Virus record (IMG/VR): IMGVR_UViG_3300021400_002728
Location: 101,154 to 165,153 of that record
DNA: 64,000 nucleotides
Direction: 5' to 3' (one strand)
Source of the DNA: a virus
Lineage: Duplodnaviria; Heunggongvirae; Uroviricota; Caudoviricetes
The notes under the pieces are model-generated. The model was not told the DNA's origin, did no database searches, and was given only the letters and a program-made list of their open reading frames with translations. This document shows, in pieces, positions 17,055 through 28,346 of the stretch. Position numbers and translations under genes: made by a program. Position 1 is the first letter of the stretch, and each line of letters opens with the position of its first letter.

Positions 17055-17126
17055 TGCATCTGACAGGATTCGAACCTGCGGTATACGAGTTAAAAGCTCG
17101 TTGCCATACCACTTGGCTACAGATGC
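17055..17126 (-). tRNA. tRNA-Lys(TTT)
   Basis: ACGAG-CT TTT AA-CTCGT. Confidence 0.9.
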
Positions 17127-17438: not shown

Positions 17439-17447
17439 ATATTTGAA

Positions 17448-17532
17448 GGACACATTGTTTACGGAATCGAACCGTTTATTCTGATTTGCAGTCAAAAATT
17501 TACCAAAATTAGAATATTTGCTGTGAGTGTCC
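17448..17532 (-). ncRNA. ACAGCAA-module RNA carrying D-like, Cys anticodon and T arms
   Basis: GGACAC-TCACAGCAA...TTTGA-CT GCA AA-TCAGA...ACGG-TTCGATT-CCGT...GTGTCC. Confidence 0.7.
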
Positions 17533-17536
17533 CAAG

Positions 17537-17771: not shown

Positions 17772-17854
17772 CGACGTGCACAGGATTCGAACCTGCAAAG
17801 CCTTACGGCCCAACTGTTTAGCAAACAGCTCCCTCAACCACCCGGACACACGCC
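17772..17854 (-). tRNA. tRNA-Ser(GCT)
   Basis: GCTGT-TT GCT AA-ACAGT, long variable arm, G73. Confidence 0.85.
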
Positions 17855-18478
17855 ATTTTGAATAATTTTCTGAGAACTCCAGTGTTCTCCAGTTGTCACA
17901 TGGTTAGCTCTGACGTACTTTATAATAGATTTATTAAAGTCATCATATGAATAACCAGAGGACAACCTCATAACAATTCCTTCACCATTATGGTTACTTA
18001 CATCTGTTATTGCTTTGTCAATGTTTGCTTTACTGTAAATACCTTTGTATAAAACTGGTACAGTAATTAAATTAAGTTCTTGTGCTCTCTTAACTGTATC
18101 TTCCCAAGAAAGACATTGTTCACCATTCCATATTGAGAATACCATTAAGTAGCTTGGTAAATTTTCATAATAGATCGAGTGTTTAGCAAATAAATATTCT
18201 GCACATACTCTTTCGTCTTCATTCATAAGATACTGAAATGATCTGATGTAGTTTAATAACCATGAATGATACTCTTTATGGGCTGAATCAATACTTCGTG
18301 CATGACATATATCTTTATAGATTGAAGTATTTTCACCATCCATCTTTTCAGTAATTACTACTTCTTTACCTTCAAAATAAGGTTCAAAGTCAGTGAAGAT
18401 CTTATCATCTGAACTTCGTCCAGGTGAGAATGGAAAATGATATGTTCTTGGATATTTATATCTTTTCATCTTTCTCAT
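17834..18478 (-). CDS. ATP-dependent RNA ligase (Rnl2-like nucleotidyltransferase domain)
   Basis: YKYPRTYH, motif I EKMDGEN, AEYL, FSIW, EGIVMR, KYVR motifs. Confidence 0.85.
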   Translation of the reverse strand: MRKMKRYKYPRTYHFPFSPGRSSDDKIFTDFEPYFEGKEVVITEKMDGENTSIYKDICHARSIDSAHKEYHSWLLNYIRSFQYLMNEDERVCAEYLFAKHSIYYENLPSYLMVFSIWNGEQCLSWEDTVKRAQELNLITVPVLYKGIYSKANIDKAITDVSNHNGEGIVMRLSSGYSYDDFNKSIIKYVRANHVTTGEHWSSQKIIQNGVCPGG

Positions 18479-19038: not shown

Positions 19039-19042
19039 ATAG

Positions 19043-19116
19043 TGGGTATTGTGGGACTCGAACCCACGACCTGATGATTAAGAGTCAACTGCTCTAGCCA
19101 TCTGAGCTAAATACCC
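19043..19116 (-). tRNA. tRNA-Lys(CTT)
   Basis: GTTGA-CT CTT AA-TCATC. Confidence 0.9.
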
Positions 19117-19262
19117 ATATTTCTAAATCGCCGACGAAGTCAATTCCGCTTCGCCTCGGACCTCATTTTACTACTTTCCCAGTGGCCAGTTGGTACTTGA
19201 GGCTACATTCGGTCTAAACCTTCTATAATCTCTCAATAATGATGAGTTTATATACTAAATAC

Positions 19263-19325
19263 ATGACACTTTATTGGGTTTCAAATTAAAAGTTTGATCC
19301 ATAATAAAATTGCTGTATGTGTCAC
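19263..19325 (-). ncRNA. Free-standing ACAGCAA module presenting a Lys(UUU) anticodon stem-loop
   Basis: GTGACAC-ATACAGCAA-TTTTATT...TCAAA-CT TTT AA-TTTGA...AATAAA-GTGTCAT. Confidence 0.7.
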
Positions 19326-19329
19326 AAAT

Positions 19330-19402
19330 TCGCCTGACAGGATTCGAACCTGCAATCATCGACTTAGAAGGTCGGTGCGTTAATTCCATTGCGCCACAGG
19401 CG
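19330..19402 (-). tRNA. tRNA-Arg(TCT)
   Basis: CCGAC-CT TCT AA-GTCGA. Confidence 0.92.
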
Positions 19403-19404
19403 AG

Positions 19405-19979: not shown

Positions 19980-20059
19980 AACTAATTTTTCCTTTCATAA
20001 TATTTGTCAGTGCAGGTAACGAGACTCGAACTCGTATGGTGTTGCCACCGAGGGATTTT

Positions 20060-20751
20060 CTTACCACCATAATTTTCATTACCGTCTCAAACAAACGTTT
20101 GTGGTCTGGACTAATTCTTCACCATATCATTTAATGACTTAGGTGCGACGTGTATAGTCTCTATACATTTAGGTTACTAAACCATTTAGCTCGCCATTCC
20201 CATACAGCTTTAACTATCTGTAAGGCTTTGTGATTTAGCGTCGTTCTCATCTAGGAGTTTCCTACCTAGTGACTCATTTGTCTTTCCTCTTCTAAAACGA
20301 TAAGTTTTAGTTAAGGCATGGCAATTTGGACAAATTAATCGTAAATTTTCTAAACTATGATTAGTTGGATTGCCATCTATGTGATCTAACTCACAAGGTG
20401 TATATTTAGCACCTTCTGGTTTTTTATTCCAACCACATAATTGACATTTGTCCTCGAAATATCCTTCATTTATAAGTCTAATTTTTAACTTATATGTTTG
20501 ATAATGAGGATATTTACCAGCTAGTATATCTTCAGTGTTAATGTGCCTTGAAGTTGTTTTCTTGGTACCTTTTCCACCTTGATTTGCAATTATATGAAAT
20601 ACATTGAGCTGTTTAGCTTTAGCACTATATGCTCTATAAGACATTCCACATAATTTACTAGCTTGAGCCATGGTTTGACAGTGTTTGGTAATTTCAATGA
20701 ACTCTTCATCAGTAATACTAGATTTATTCATATCCATCACCAACTTTCTTT
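20060..20751 (-). mobile_element. Group I intron (692 nt) between U34 and A35, encoding an HNH endonuclease
   Basis: Exon 1 ends in U, intron ends in G; R-like ATAGAGACTATAC and S-like GAAGAATTAGTCC core elements. Confidence 0.85.
20210..20743 (-). CDS. Intron-encoded HNH homing endonuclease
   Basis: CQLCG...ELDHIDGNPTNHSLENLRLICPNCH. Confidence 0.9.
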   Translation of the reverse strand: MVMDMNKSSITDEEFIEITKHCQTMAQASKLCGMSYRAYSAKAKQLNVFHIIANQGGKGTKKTTSRHINTEDILAGKYPHYQTYKLKIRLINEGYFEDKCQLCGWNKKPEGAKYTPCELDHIDGNPTNHSLENLRLICPNCHALTKTYRFRRGKTNESLGRKLLDENDAKSQSLTDS

Positions 20752-20826: not shown

Positions 20827-22290
20827 TTAAGCAGCTACTGTAACTGCTGCATAACGATCACTAAGGATCACATCGAGCATTGCTTCAAGAGGTGTCTTGT
20901 TAAGGCTCTGAATTACATTCTTGAATGTAGTTGCAGAATGTCCAGATACAAGCTGTACACCCTTATTAGTAGCATCTGCGTGGAAAGTATCAGACTCGCT
21001 GTTTACATTCCAGAATACTACGTTAGGAATCTTATATCCAGCGGCATCAAATGCCTTAGCATACTTCTCATAGAAGGTATCTGCACCATGTACGCTATAA
21101 GAATCAATCTGCATATCTGAAATTACAATGAGTGCTTCAGGTATCTCTTCAGCAGGAGTCTTATTAGCAATAGCAGTATCAAGGATAAGCTTGAATGCCG
21201 CGTCAAGATTAGTGTTATCATTGATAGTTCTGATATTTCTAATCTTATCAATAAGAGTTGCACCAGATACCTTAACTAAAGTAGGTCTTGAGCTAAAGGT
21301 CATGAAGTAACCTCCAAATGCACCCTTATTTCTCTCAGCAAAGTATAATGCGAGACCTACAGAAGATGCAATAGGAAGTCTATTGCAGCAAGTCATAGAT
21401 CCGGATGTATCAGCCATAACAAGAATATTCTTGTTAGGATCTACATAATCAGGAAGTGCCTTCCACTGAGCTTCAAGAACCTTACTATCTTCACCAAACA
21501 TGATCTTCTGAATGATGTCGTAAGGATAAAGTGTGCCGGCCTTAATCTCAACCTTACCAGAAGTTACATCTTCAAGGTACTTACTAAATCTATCCTTGTC
21601 CTTAAGACCGAAGAGCTTACGATACTTCATCATTGCGTTAGAAGGAATCTTATCATACGCAATAGTATCAAAGTTATTTGCAGAGACCTTAATCTCTACG
21701 ATGTCAAGGTACTTACGAAGAGCCTTAAGATCCTTCTTGAATGCCTTAACATTCTTATATCCGAGCTTCTGAGAAGTCAAGATACCCATCTTACGAGTTT
21801 CAGGAGATGAAGCATCAGGAGTCTTAATCCACTTAGCAAGAAGTGAAACAGGCTGATCCTTCTTCATATTCTTGACATCCATCTTGAACTGCTTCTTCAT
21901 TGCAGCCCACATCTCGTCTTCGCAGGCAGTTCCGACCAGACAATAGAGATCGTCGAATCTACCATAGAATCCAATTAATGGAATGTTAGGCGCGACGATC
22001 TCCTTGTGCTTATTTGCTGCATACGCAAGCAAAGTTCGGAAGGTCTCTCTTTCACCAAGTCCTTCTCTGATATCTCTACCATAGAAAAGGATCTTAGCGG
22101 CAAGCTCTTTGTTATCAGCGATTGCCTTCTCAAAGAGGTCAATCTTCCGATCAGAGTCTGCCTTTCTTAACGCGCCGATAGTTGAATATAAATCGACAAG
22201 TGCATTTCCTGAGGATTTCAGGCAAATGGCACCATTTTCCGTATAGGTAAATGATGTTGTTTCGCTGAGTTGTCTGTTCATCTTTGGCAT
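20827..22290 (-). CDS. DUF2828-family TROVE/Ro60-like protein with C-terminal vWA domain
   Basis: TENGA, RDIREGLGER, SLLAKWI, YDKIPS.AM, LYPYDI, MIDAS DTSGSM, ISDMQ, VFWNV motifs. Confidence 0.8.
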   Translation of the reverse strand: MPKMNRQLSETTSFTYTENGAICLKSSGNALVDLYSTIGALRKADSDRKIDLFEKAIADNKELAAKILFYGRDIREGLGERETFRTLLAYAANKHKEIVAPNIPLIGFYGRFDDLYCLVGTACEDEMWAAMKKQFKMDVKNMKKDQPVSLLAKWIKTPDASSPETRKMGILTSQKLGYKNVKAFKKDLKALRKYLDIVEIKVSANNFDTIAYDKIPSNAMMKYRKLFGLKDKDRFSKYLEDVTSGKVEIKAGTLYPYDIIQKIMFGEDSKVLEAQWKALPDYVDPNKNILVMADTSGSMTCCNRLPIASSVGLALYFAERNKGAFGGYFMTFSSRPTLVKVSGATLIDKIRNIRTINDNTNLDAAFKLILDTAIANKTPAEEIPEALIVISDMQIDSYSVHGADTFYEKYAKAFDAAGYKIPNVVFWNVNSESDTFHADATNKGVQLVSGHSATTFKNVIQSLNKTPLEAMLDVILSDRYAAVTVAA

Positions 22291-22495: not shown

Positions 22496-23302
22496 ATGAT
22501 GCTGTAACTATATTCTTAATTCAAATGGAAAGAGTAAAGTTATAATAGTTTGCTGTAAGCATCACAATTTTGAGTCGTCCACTAAAGCAGGACCTCTCTA
22601 ATTAAAATGATTGACACGCTTTTCTTTGTAGGATTTTTTCGACAAGCGTTACACTCGATTTCCTAGTATACTCATTAGCTATACCAGACTGATGTCTAAT
22701 CAACACTTACGCGTTCATTTGACCACTATTAACATTTGATCTTGTTTGGTTTGCTGTAGTCAATCACAAAATGCAATTGTAAAGGTACAATACCTAAATG
22801 ACGAGAATAACAAGATAATTTTATGAAATTTTCTGTTGTTATTTTTATTGCTGTAATCGTCACAAGCAGGTAAGTTAATAAATGACTGACAAGGAATGTT
22901 TGATGGGATCTTTTGGTCATTACCTATGCTACACCATTTCCCGACATGTTAGGTACATGCCAACCTAATTTTTATTTACCCAAAAAATAAAATTAAGAAG
23001 ATTTGCAATTGTATTGCTGTTAAGTCAGTCACGACTTTGTAAAAATATGATTGTCACGGACTCTTCCTCGGATTTTCTGGTGGCATACCGCTCTTTACCA
23101 TTTCCGGATAGATCATTTGAATCGGATCTTTTGGCTGATACTATCATGTCTTCCATTTCCGAATAGGTCGTTAATCAGATTTTTTAGTGACCTATCAGTA
23201 TACATTTTCTGGATTGTTAAGCAATCAGCTTTTGCGCCTTTATCGCACACATACTGTTATCATCTCTTTAATATAAGAATGATTTGCTGTTAAGACAATC
23301 AC
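22496..23302 (-). repeat. Cluster of five ACAGCAA-module RNAs (22496-22565, 22687-22767, 22798-22863, 22957-23032, 23047-23302)
   Basis: Each starts GTGA(C/T)N2-6 then N2-ACAGCAA and closes on a complementary 3' strand, mostly ending (G/A)TCAT; interiors differ. Confidence 0.75.
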
Positions 23303-24959: not shown

Positions 24960-25018
24960 ATGACTCGTTATATTTTTCACCCAATTGAAAATTTTTAAGT
25001 GATTGCTGACTAAGTCAC
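24960..25018 (-). ncRNA. ACAGCAA-type module at the head of the RNA district
   Basis: GTGACT-TAGTCAGCAA...TTTTCA-ATTGGG-TGAAAA...AGTCAT. Confidence 0.55.
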
Positions 25019-25269: not shown

Positions 25270-26463
25270 TTAGTCTTTACGCACAGCCTTCATTTTTACT
25301 TTATTTTCATACATTTGAGCATCAGCGCGTACAAATACATCATGAAACGAAGTATCTCTTTCCGCTGAATATACAGCATATCCAGTTGCGGCAGAAATAT
25401 TTTCCCACTCATTAGATTTGCCAGTTTTAGTTATAGACGATCCTATATTAGTAAGTAAGAAACTAAGTACGTCTACATTCTTACCAGATATAATTACAGC
25501 AAATTCATCTCCACCTATTCTAAAGCAATTACAACCAGTAAACATTGATCGTATATCATCTGCTAAGATCTTAAGTGCAATATCGCCCTTATCATGACCA
25601 TAGGTATCATTCATCTTCTTTAAGAAGTTAAGATCTATTATAATAAGAGAGAATTTAGCTATACCATTCTTAATATCATCATTTAGTTTTTCTTCATATT
25701 TTTCAAATGCGTTACGATTAGATAGACCAGTCAACCCATCTATATACATAATTTGTTCAGCCTGTAGAGCTTTAGCGGTCCAATATATTGAAGATCCTAA
25801 TACTGAATATTCAGATATATAAATAAAACATATAATTAAAAATAGTGGTACAAATAACTTATTACCTGGTACTATATTAGCTGCATTTGCAATATAGGTT
25901 ATTGCAGAAAAACTAAATAAAGCTGAAATAGGTATAATTATATAGTTCTTTAACTGGCCATTTGATACTTTTAGCATGCCTTTAAACGGTCGTTTTATAA
26001 AGACTACAAATAAGGTTGATATTAAGCTAAGTACTATAAGTTTAACTGCAATAAAGAATAATATATTCTTAATAGTATATGGACCATTTACTGGGTCAAA
26101 TAAATTAAGTCTTGAACCAATTATCTGATCAGTTGTACCGCAAAACAAAAATGTACTTACTACAATTATAAGTGTTGTAGTGCAGTTAATAAATATATTA
26201 TGTGATAATGTTTCTTTGCATAATGCATGCCCAAGTATACAAAGTGCAACACAATATAATACTAATGGTATGGCATCATTCATTATAAAGAAGCTATACC
26301 AAAACATAGTTAACGCTAACAATATAAAAACTGATCCAAACCACAAAAATGCATGTGTTTTCTTTGAATACTTCGGAGTTGTAAGTACGGACGTAAGTAA
26401 AGATGCATATGTAAAATTTAATATGCTACTTAACGACCATAATATGACTATCGAAGTTTCCAT
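25270..26463 (-). CDS. Multi-TM diguanylate cyclase (GGDEF)
   Basis: About 7 TM helices then DGLTGLSNR, DLNFLKKMNDTYGHDKGD, RIGGDEF. Confidence 0.92.
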   Translation of the reverse strand: METSIVILWSLSSILNFTYASLLTSVLTTPKYSKKTHAFLWFGSVFILLALTMFWYSFFIMNDAIPLVLYCVALCILGHALCKETLSHNIFINCTTTLIIVVSTFLFCGTTDQIIGSRLNLFDPVNGPYTIKNILFFIAVKLIVLSLISTLFVVFIKRPFKGMLKVSNGQLKNYIIIPISALFSFSAITYIANAANIVPGNKLFVPLFLIICFIYISEYSVLGSSIYWTAKALQAEQIMYIDGLTGLSNRNAFEKYEEKLNDDIKNGIAKFSLIIIDLNFLKKMNDTYGHDKGDIALKILADDIRSMFTGCNCFRIGGDEFAVIISGKNVDVLSFLLTNIGSSITKTGKSNEWENISAATGYAVYSAERDTSFHDVFVRADAQMYENKVKMKAVRKD

Positions 26464-26480
26464 ATAATGTCCTCCTCTAA

Positions 26481-28346
26481 TTAACTTGCATTATGAGAGG
26501 ATAAGAAATTCAAGAAATCTTCCATAGGAAGTGGTTTTGAAAAATAATATCCCTGAATATACTCAATATTAAGATCTAACATGGCCTCAAGTTGTTCTCT
26601 AGTTTCGATTCCTTCTGAGACAATGTTAAGATTCATATTATGCATAGTATGAGTCATTCCCTCTAATACCTGTTTTACTTTTTTATTGTTGAAATAACCT
26701 TGAGTAAAACTATAATCAAACTTGATATTTTGTACAGGAAAATCAACAAGATAATCAAGATTTGATCGTCCTGTTCCAAAATCGTCTAATGAAAATGTTA
26801 TTCCCTGTTCAAGTAATTGATTTATGTTTTTAATAAGATTATTTCTACTTTTATTCTGTGCTGTCTCAGTAATTTCGAGATTTATCATAGATGGATCAAT
26901 ATTATATTTTTCAATCATATCAATAATAAATTTGGCTGGATTTTCAAAATCAAACTGAGCTGCAGATAAGTTTACTTCTATATTATTAAGACCTAGTTGC
27001 TTAGGATCATGCTCAGAAATAAACTGACACACTTTCTCAAATATTCTCATACCCAATGGAATAATTTGACCAGTTTCTTCAGAAATTGGAATAAATACTC
27101 CAGGTGGAGTAATACTACCGTCAAGATTTCTAATTCGTACTAATGCTTCAGCAGCAGAAAATTTATGTGTCTTTACATTATAAAAAGGTTGATAGAATAC
27201 TTCTACTCTATCATCATTAAGAGCGTCTTCAATGAGATCGTGAACCTGATTATATTTTCTCAAGTCTGCGATAACGTCTTCATTAACTTCAATTATTTCG
27301 TCCTTTAATGACTCATTCATTTGAATAAAATTAAAGAACTCTTCAGGATTAATGAAATCTAGTCCATTTGGAATAACTATATAATGTAAAGTGGTTAAGT
27401 CTTCTTTTGAATTAGACTTAATATCTTTAAACTTTTCTAAATGTGCCTTCATTCGATATTTGTCATTAAATGCAACAACAAATAAATCATCATCTAACTT
27501 AAATACTGGATCTGAACCTAAACTATTTAAGGCCTGTGATGCCATAAATCTAGCTTTATTCTTAAGTTCTATTTCAACCATTTGAGATAAGTAATTAAGC
27601 TTAACCACAAATGCTGAAAATGGTGTCTTAAACTTAAACTGATCATTTATGTAATTAGTAAAACCAATATAATTAAACGTATTAGTATAAGTATCTAAAT
27701 ATACATTTGGATTTTCTAACTGTGTATAAAGTATAATTACACTAAATGCAGACGCAAATCCAATTAAAAGAAGTTCGGGAACTATGAATTGAATCAACAC
27801 ACAAACAAGCCAAATACCTTGCCATGTCATTATAGTTCTAAACTTTTTATATGACATTTCTTTTCTTTTTATAATAGCTAAAGAAATTGTAGTTAAAATT
27901 AAAATGACAGCCAAGATATATGCTACTAGAGTAGATGCTCCGTATGAATATGCTTGTCTGCCATCCATGGCGTATGATATAGGCAATGCTAATATCATCA
28001 GTTCTCCGAACGTAAAAATTGCATGCAGTATTCGTTTTATATGTTTATATTTATCATTAATTAGTAATTCAGTCATTACATATACATATCCGAGATATCC
28101 TTGTAGGACTAATGAGAATATGTATAACTTACATACTAATTTGGTTATAAATGGACTAAATCCGCATTTTGTTGAATAATAAATGCAGATTACTGATACT
28201 ATATCTAGTACCAACATTGCGATACAACTATATAAGGATCGCATAAACAATATTCTATTTGTTAACTTCAGTTTCTTTTCTCGCATGAATAGTACGTATA
28301 TGACTAGTACTATAAATAGAGAACAGCACTGTAATTCAATATTCAT
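26481..28346 (-). CDS. Multi-TM EAL c-di-GMP phosphodiesterase with degenerate GGDEF domain
   Basis: FYQP, AEALVR, EVNLS, LEITE, DDFGTG, KFD, EGIE, QGYYFSKP. Confidence 0.92.
   Translation of the reverse strand: MNIELQCCSLFIVLVIYVLFMREKKLKLTNRILFMRSLYSCIAMLVLDIVSVICIYYSTKCGFSPFITKLVCKLYIFSLVLQGYLGYVYVMTELLINDKYKHIKRILHAIFTFGELMILALPISYAMDGRQAYSYGASTLVAYILAVILILTTISLAIIKRKEMSYKKFRTIMTWQGIWLVCVLIQFIVPELLLIGFASAFSVIILYTQLENPNVYLDTYTNTFNYIGFTNYINDQFKFKTPFSAFVVKLNYLSQMVEIELKNKARFMASQALNSLGSDPVFKLDDDLFVVAFNDKYRMKAHLEKFKDIKSNSKEDLTTLHYIVIPNGLDFINPEEFFNFIQMNESLKDEIIEVNEDVIADLRKYNQVHDLIEDALNDDRVEVFYQPFYNVKTHKFSAAEALVRIRNLDGSITPPGVFIPISEETGQIIPLGMRIFEKVCQFISEHDPKQLGLNNIEVNLSAAQFDFENPAKFIIDMIEKYNIDPSMINLEITETAQNKSRNNLIKNINQLLEQGITFSLDDFGTGRSNLDYLVDFPVQNIKFDYSFTQGYFNNKKVKQVLEGMTHTMHNMNLNIVSEGIETREQLEAMLDLNIEYIQGYYFSKPLPMEDFLNFLSSHNAS

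Follow-up and report, generated by a model that had tools for sequence, protein, structure and literature searches.

The genome studied here is that of a complete phage of 394,266 base pairs (bp) with terminal repeats, whose relatives are found in metagenomes of the rumen and the gut. The window, a stretch of 64,000 nucleotides (nt) corresponding to positions 101,154 to 165,153 of the IMG/VR record IMGVR_UViG_3300021400_002728, contains about 40 transfer RNA (tRNA) genes and a transfer-messenger RNA (tmRNA), all of them on the minus strand. Within this array lies a 63-nt RNA, here called element A (19263..19325, minus strand), in which a terminal stem and a conserved bulge, together referred to as the handle, carry the anticodon arm of tRNA-Lys(UUU). 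It is supported by its sequence, its fold, covarying orthologues and a score of 77.5 bits against R1, a covariance model built on 10 sequences of the same type (A-type RNAs). The gene of tRNA-Arg(UCU) (19329..19403, minus strand) ends 3 nt ahead of element A, and the next gene downstream, across a spacer of 146 nt, is that of tRNA-Lys(CUU) (19042..19116, minus strand). The spacer itself (19117-19262, minus strand) holds neither an open reading frame nor an Rfam match; several hairpins are predicted in it, with an ordinary folding energy (z = -1.33), and contigs from RNA libraries span it. In a related locus (L022), the orthologue of element A lies 7 nt ahead of tRNA-Lys(CUU).

Read on the minus strand from 19325 to 19263, element A is composed of GUGACAC, AU, ACAGCAA, one strand of an AU-rich stem, UGGA, the arm UCAAA-CUUUUAA-UUUGA, AACCC, the returning strand of the AU stem and GUGUCAU. 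Its two ends (19319..19325 and 19263-19269) pair into a terminal stem, P1, of 7 bp, or 8 bp if a flanking U and G are counted, which is followed by an unpaired bulge on the 5′ side, AU-ACAGCAA (the motif ACAGCAA at 19310..19316), and by the AU-rich stem P2 above it. At the apex (19281..19297), a 5-bp stem closes the 7-nt loop CUUUUAA (19286-19292). This nested hairpin is the minimum-energy fold of the minus strand, and it bears out the original prediction, which had described a minimal RNA exposing an exact tRNA-Lys(UUU) anticodon stem-loop, set on an AU stem and an ACAGCAA module and devoid of a tRNA body. The fold energy is within the range of chance (z = -1.48, with 16 of 200 shuffled sequences folding equally well), so that, the single sequence being non-significant on energy, the support for the structure rests on comparison.

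The loop of element A matches at 7 of 7 positions those in the phage's pair of tRNA-Lys(UUU) genes (13600-13673 and 17055-17126), both of which read CUUUUAA, and the apex has every trait of a tRNA anticodon stem-loop: a 5-bp stem, a 7-nt loop, U33, a purine at position 37 and species-typical bases at positions 32 and 38. The stems of the two tRNA genes differ from each other (CAUGA/UCAUG and ACGAG/CUCGU). This pair of genes had been put forward as a sign of pressure on tRNA-Lys; the genes do exist, and as such a sign they offer weak, circumstantial support. Element A is not called as a tRNA by either ARAGORN or the Rfam model RF00005, and it lacks the T and D arms as well as a CCA end. No Rfam family, Y_RNA and YrlA included, matches it at the gathering score across the window or at E <= 10 on positions 19100-19345, and the sole match in a megablast search of GenBank phages was a tRNA-Lys of Streptomyces phages, which is irrelevant to element A.

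Conservation of the RNA and its coupling to a Ro60-like gene

To look for orthologues of element A without relying on the RNA itself, we started from close homologues of the adjacent protein and inspected the sequence around their genes; the element was found at the syntenic position in every clade covering the region. The apical stem is specific to each clade (UCAAA/UUUGA, GAAAA/UUUUC, AUAUA/UAUAU, AAAUA/UAUUU or CAUAA/UUAUG), with an unchanged loop. In 9 distinct close sequences all 108 stem cells are paired, and double-sided, compensatory changes occur in 4 of the 5 pairs of the anticodon stem. A wider set of 30 distinct homologues keeps 360 of 360 stem cells paired, with double-sided changes in 7 of 12 pairs; P1 is paired in 100% of these sequences and changed on both sides in 3 of its 7 pairs, and the anticodon stem in 4 of its 5. 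The covariation score of this set was matched by no shuffle, and sliding the register lowers the pairing to 19-61%. Within the CAGCAA core of the bulge, C11, G13, C14, A15 and A16 are invariant in the 30 homologues, as are, in both the close and the wider alignment, loop positions 32, U33, U36, A37 and A38 and the pair A31-U39. Element A is a conserved, structured small RNA, and the frame of its anticodon loop is under selection; the loop, whose conservation the original prediction had proposed to check, does not drift freely among homologues.

The adjacent gene (20827..22290, minus strand) encodes a protein of 487 amino acids with the Pfam domains DUF2828 and DUF7788 and a weak von Willebrand factor A (vWA) signal, and it is assigned to PHROG 850, ‘RNA-binding protein’ (E 6e-127). 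A search of the PDB with its sequence gave nothing meaningful, so that its likeness to Ro60 comes from a fold search only. A structural model computed from 37 homologues (pLDDT 90.3, pTM 0.90) retrieved as its top 12 PDB matches exclusively Ro60/TROVE proteins, with alignments that span the full chain (E 1e-8 to 4e-5, TM 0.46-0.61), from Xenopus, human, Deinococcus and the Thermus phage phiLo (9KOP, 9L5Y), with vWA domains ranking lower. The protein is thus predicted to form a Ro60-like ring, yet it belongs to a separate sequence family, and we propose it as the partner of element A.

Genetic coupling of the RNA and this gene was seen from both directions. A search of viral contigs with the single 487-aa protein found no relatives, whereas an alignment-based search did, and in 79 of the 80 IMG/VR loci with a DUF2828 homologue the best R1 match lies on the strand of the gene and ends 106-160 nt (median 145) before its start codon; the lone exception still carries three other handle RNAs. 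Conversely, each of the five viral records retrieved by a DNA pattern alone has a gene for the protein (E 1e-153 to 1e-163), the RNA lying a short way upstream; an identical A-type sequence is shared by four of these records, so that the five represent about two lineages. The first gap of the pattern was narrowed after an initial version met an unrelated conserved 31-mer. Pattern matches are biased to the loop CUUUUAA, and they were used for covariation and for the test from RNA to gene but excluded from the loop statistics given below. As a control, R1 produced no match at E <= 1 in 98 unrelated viral loci (697 kb), each with a chance occurrence of the linear pattern. The A-type RNA is the most constant RNA companion of the DUF2828 gene and is thus linked genetically to a protein whose predicted fold is that of Ro60. 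In jumbo phages, it lies 1.5-2.4 kb downstream of the gene, within the tRNA array. The pairing of a DUF2828 protein with ACAGCAA-handle RNAs occurs in hundreds of phage and Lachnospiraceae contigs, the bacterial contigs with a DUF2828-type neighbour gene being nearly all from Lachnospiraceae, and it constitutes a large, previously undescribed branch. Among bacterial sequences, 155 contigs and metagenome-assembled genomes carry the gene.

Element A is fully covered by an RNA-library contig (19260-19661) and partly by a contig from another study (19152-19312). In both runs, contigs join position 20056 to 20749 and skip 692 nt, the spliced intron of a tRNA-Leu, which indicates that these libraries hold real RNA of the phage or of a near relative. 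The splicing of this HNH-bearing group I intron of tRNA-Leu(UAA) (20056-20749) is directly evidenced by the RNA contigs.

Anticodons displayed by related RNAs

The displayed anticodon is not always that of lysine. Among the viral loci anchored on the protein, which were chosen without bias as to the loop, the sequences are CUGUUAA (Asn GUU; 65 loci with 17 distinct RNAs), CUGCUAA (Ser GCU; 11), CUUUUAA (Lys UUU; 6) and AUUGUAA (Thr UGU; 2). Single changes can account for such switches: two near-identical RNAs, one Lys (L256) and one Asn (L276), differ solely at position 34, and another pair, Asn (L250) and Ser GCU (L219), solely at position 35. Contigs of Lachnospiraceae add loops of Lys(CUU), Asp (CUGUCAC, with the C38 that is typical of tRNA-Asp), Arg(UCU), Leu(UAA and CAA), Met(CAU) and Cys(GCA), as well as UCA, and U33 and A37 are kept in every one of these anticodon-like loops. 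The notion that only tRNAs reading ANN codons are copied, suggested by the IMG/VR set, fails in this wider set. In two copies of the Lys type (L334, L340), the whole 17-nt arm is identical to that of the phage tRNA-Lys gene at 13600-13673. The sequence U36-A-A-U39 is present in the 30 aligned A-type RNAs and in both Thr-type RNAs.

Because the displayed anticodon varies among relatives, the selective pressure concerns anticodon arms generally and not tRNA-Lys alone. Judged from these comparisons, the selected feature is the correct anticodon arm of some tRNA, with the identity of the copied tRNA changing fast. The original view of a free-standing, Lys-specific RNA does not survive this result, nor does it fit an RNA that accompanies a Ro60-like gene so regularly: a decoy is plausible, yet as a Lys-specific and protein-free one it is drawn too narrowly.

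Possible roles of the anticodon arm

The conservation of Ro60 proteins and Y RNAs extends from bacteria to humans, and the role of the variable part of Y RNAs is poorly understood. A plan of stem, bulge and variable module, encoded alongside a gene of predicted Ro60 fold, matches that of Y RNAs, which leads us to read the handle as a docking site and the arm as a display to a third party. The explanation that we prefer, still tentatively, is that element A is a Y-RNA-like partner of the Ro60-like protein that displays the anticodon arm of one tRNA, probably to lure or divert some host factor with anticodon specificity. Element A would be processed from the transcript of the tRNA array as a small non-coding RNA, the handle would by analogy with Y RNAs dock on the Ro60-like ring, and the remainder of each handle RNA would be its payload. 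In element A, this payload would be the copy of the tRNA-Lys(UUU) anticodon arm (a 5-bp stem with A31-U39 and the loop C32-U33-UUU-A37-A38), resting on a short GG/CC helix that extends the stack. The particle could then present the arm to a host factor reading anticodon arms, most plausibly a defence tRNase that is specific for certain anticodons, and the RNA would then be its bait, competitor or sensor. Binding of the protein to the handle, reading of the arm as a tRNA and a nuclease as the target are all three things that we infer. Defence tRNases are the best-known anticodon-specific factors, and quick switches of the displayed anticodon from one close relative to the next would be the pattern expected of an arms race with factors of this kind. 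The PARIS effector AriB cuts tRNAs Lys(UUU), Thr(UGU) and Asn(GUU), which have the motif U36-A-A-U39 in common, and competition by overexpressed viral tRNAs was raised as a possibility by the authors of that work (PMC12409363); PrrC, in turn, is Lys-specific (PMC1484252). The retention of U36-A-A-U39 in the A-type and Thr-type RNAs and an RNA ligase gene in the same tRNA array lend a nuclease target some plausibility.

Known systems offer partial parallels. The Ro60 protein of phage phiLo binds two Y-like RNAs, Yrl1 and Yrl2, which are encoded just upstream of its gene and have, between a terminal and a second stem, a bulge that bears a conserved motif, and its structures 9KOP and 9L5Y are among the best matches to our model; the phiLo RNAs differ in their CGAA bulge, in the absence of an anticodon arm and in that their binding has been shown experimentally, whereas that of element A is predicted (PMC12135203). 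Y and YrlA RNAs resemble element A in being small RNAs with an end stem, a conserved bulge and a tRNA-mimicking module; they are encoded with a ring-shaped Ro60-type protein, as element A is with one of predicted Ro60 fold, and they also occur in phages beside tRNA clusters (PMC4201824). The protein encoded with element A, however, has DUF2828 and DUF7788 in place of the Pfam TROVE domain, and the bulge of the RNA is ACAGCAA. Bacterial and phage YrlA RNAs, of 80-130 nt, reproduce the T, D and acceptor portions of a tRNA and lack the anticodon arm, at whose place the Ro60-binding stem stands (PMC4201824). The A-type RNAs (58-69 nt) do the opposite, with an anticodon arm only and nothing of the YrlA tRNA-like domain (T arm, D arm and acceptor-like stem), although a sister RNA described below does carry a T arm. 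Yrn1 of Deinococcus radiodurans can be drawn with a 5-bp stem at the anticodon position (PMC4201824), but its 6-nt loop lacks an anticodon-loop signature, whereas the 7-nt loop of element A is species-exact. Finally, the tRNA-Lys, tRNA-Thr and tRNA-Asn of phage T5 are likewise an RNA answer of a phage to an attack on anticodon arms, with Lys, Asn and Thr involved in both cases (PMC11464382, PMC12409363). The T5 molecules are complete tRNAs that decode and that evade cleavage by changes at positions 39 and 41, which in T5 tRNA-Lys confer resistance to PARIS AriB (PMC12409363), whereas element A is non-decoding and keeps U36-A-A-U39. As for the tRNA-Lys(UUU) genes of the window, the one at 17055-17126 (minus strand) has G31-C39 and C41, compared with A31-U39 and A41 in that at 13600-13673.

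Several observations weigh against a display of anticodon arms by a Ro60-like particle to a host tRNase. The similarity to Ro60 is that of a predicted fold, at 13-16% identity and outside the TROVE family, and the handle is unlike known Ro60-binding sites, with the Rfam models of Y_RNA and YrlA finding no match. In this jumbo phage, element A does not adjoin the protein gene but lies 1.5 kb from it, and RtcB is absent from the phage genome. Over 27 loci, the displayed anticodon bears no consistent relation to the tRNA genes beside the locus. The broad range of anticodons weakens the tie to any one nuclease such as PARIS or PrrC, and it fits synthetases, enzymes of N6-threonylcarbamoyladenosine (t6A) or wobble modification and the ribosomal decoding site equally well. 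The RNA data, moreover, are assembled metatranscriptome (Logan) contigs, in which ends, strand and abundance are not readable and uncovered parts are uninformative.

A competing explanation, to which we give a lower though appreciable chance, is that of a tether: the arm would bring to the ring either the ribosomal A site or an enzyme that binds tRNA, be it a synthetase, one of repair or one of t6A or wobble modification, for the quality control or repair of tRNAs during infection. U36-A37-A38, the loop signature of t6A-bearing tRNAs, recurs in all of the common types, namely Lys, Asn, Ser(GCU) and Thr. The same array encodes, about 0.8 kb downstream of element A, a 214-aa protein of the RNA ligase family (17834..18478, minus strand; PF09414, 98 bits; PHROG ‘RNA ligase’). 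Precedents exist in the Y RNA that tethers Ro60 to PNPase (PMC4201824) and in the proposal of jumbo-phage TROVE proteins as RNA-repair platforms (PMC7824862). The one-base switches of the anticodon in near-identical RNAs, however, resemble an arms race more than housekeeping, and the more distant loops (Asp, Leu, Cys) share no modification class.

That the 63-mer alone absorbs a Lys-specific anticodon nuclease, with the handle serving only for stability or processing, appears rather improbable. The exact Lys(UUU) loop is indeed conserved in the jumbo-phage clade, and nucleases are known to attack tRNA-Lys (PMC12409363, PMC1484252), but the handle motif, no less conserved than the loop, is closely linked with the Ro60-like gene (79/80 loci; 5/5 RNA-first records), and the anticodon on display is frequently other than Lys. 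Less probable again is a purely cis-acting element with no role in trans, be it a processing site, stabiliser or terminator of the array or an autoregulatory leader of the Ro60-like gene. The position of element A 3 nt after a tRNA, the presence of A-type RNAs in the region upstream of the gene in small phages and, as a weak hint, two RNA contigs of one run that abut at 19258/19260, by the 3′ end of element A, would agree with such a role; no U-tract follows element A, however, a processing signal needs no species-exact loop with a switching anticodon, and the jumbo-phage copy, lying downstream of the gene, is not its leader. The 7-bp terminal stem with an anticodon arm, inside a tRNA array, might also recall a functionless remnant of a decayed tRNA-Lys or an armless, minimal decoding tRNA, both very hard to credit, since decay is excluded by covariation and complete pairing in 30 homologues, and the missing T arm, D arm and CCA and the absence of any ARAGORN or Rfam tRNA call speak against decoding.

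If element A is, as we prefer to think, a Y-RNA-like partner of the Ro60-like protein, the payload is readable as an anticodon arm, an ‘address’ that shifts by point mutation between close relatives, and this readability turns a vague question of function into direct experiments on the host binder of a Lys, Asn, Ser or Asp arm. Should the target be a defence tRNase, an RNA-protein decoy system would stand alongside the known phage strategy of nuclease-resistant tRNAs. A bolder extension, which we consider possible but doubtful, is that the phages infecting Clostridia of the gut and rumen possess an anti-defence particle whose target can be exchanged: a Ro60-like ring with mini-RNAs that display one tRNA anticodon arm each and are re-aimed at anticodon-specific host tRNases by single changes at positions 34 or 35. 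If true, RNA-based counter-defence would gain a new class, and the Ro60 fold a new function.

Further handle RNAs and other features of the window

The strict pattern GUGAY-N-ACAGCAA is matched 9 times in the 394-kb genome, each time on the minus strand within the tRNA region, and its reversed control never. In total, eight free-standing handle RNAs of 59-256 nt share an end-closing stem of 7-9 bp (GUGAY.../...RUCAU), the unpaired ACAGCAA on the 5′ side and a variable body, and five more copies of the handle are embedded in tRNA genes, where the module is circularly permuted. Immediately upstream of the gene for the Ro60-like protein, the minus strand encodes five members, each with this closing stem and ACAGCAA: B (22496-22565), C (22607-22767), D (22798-22863), E (22882-23032) and F (23047-23302). 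Members C, E and F (22607-23302) contain repeated sub-modules, GGAAAUGG-hairpin-CCAAAAGAUCC, in the form GGAAAUCG...CGAAAAAAUCC in C. Member G (24960..25018, minus strand), of 59 nt and with the bulge variant UCAGCAA, is kept in three related loci (L009, L013, L020) and is smaller than element A, which is thus the second smallest of the family. The loops of the short members D and G vary among relatives, in contrast to that of element A.

The sister RNA with a T arm is member H (17447..17533, minus strand), which joins the handle to a Cys(GCA) anticodon arm. Its anticodon is GCA in the window and in L013, and UCA, which would read UGA, in the clade of L009 (L009:13575-13664), one change at position 34. 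In small phages of about 40-80 kb that share this gene family, tRNA genes with the handle in their anticodon arm stand just upstream of an A-type RNA (L198:5161-5590 and L194:1170-1365), an arrangement which indicates that both topologies of the module travel together beyond jumbo phages.

Other features of the same array include a tRNA with the ochre-reading anticodon UUA (13126-13197, minus strand) and the phage tmRNA (9551-9912, minus strand), whose tag is ANNVQMAA. The 3′ end of the RNA ligase gene overlaps a tRNA-Ser(GCU) call of ARAGORN by about 20 nt. Further along, at 25270-28346 (minus strand), adjoining genes encode a GGDEF protein of 397 and an EAL protein of 621 amino acids, a pair conserved in L012 and L020, through which the phage may alter the cyclic di-GMP signalling of its host.
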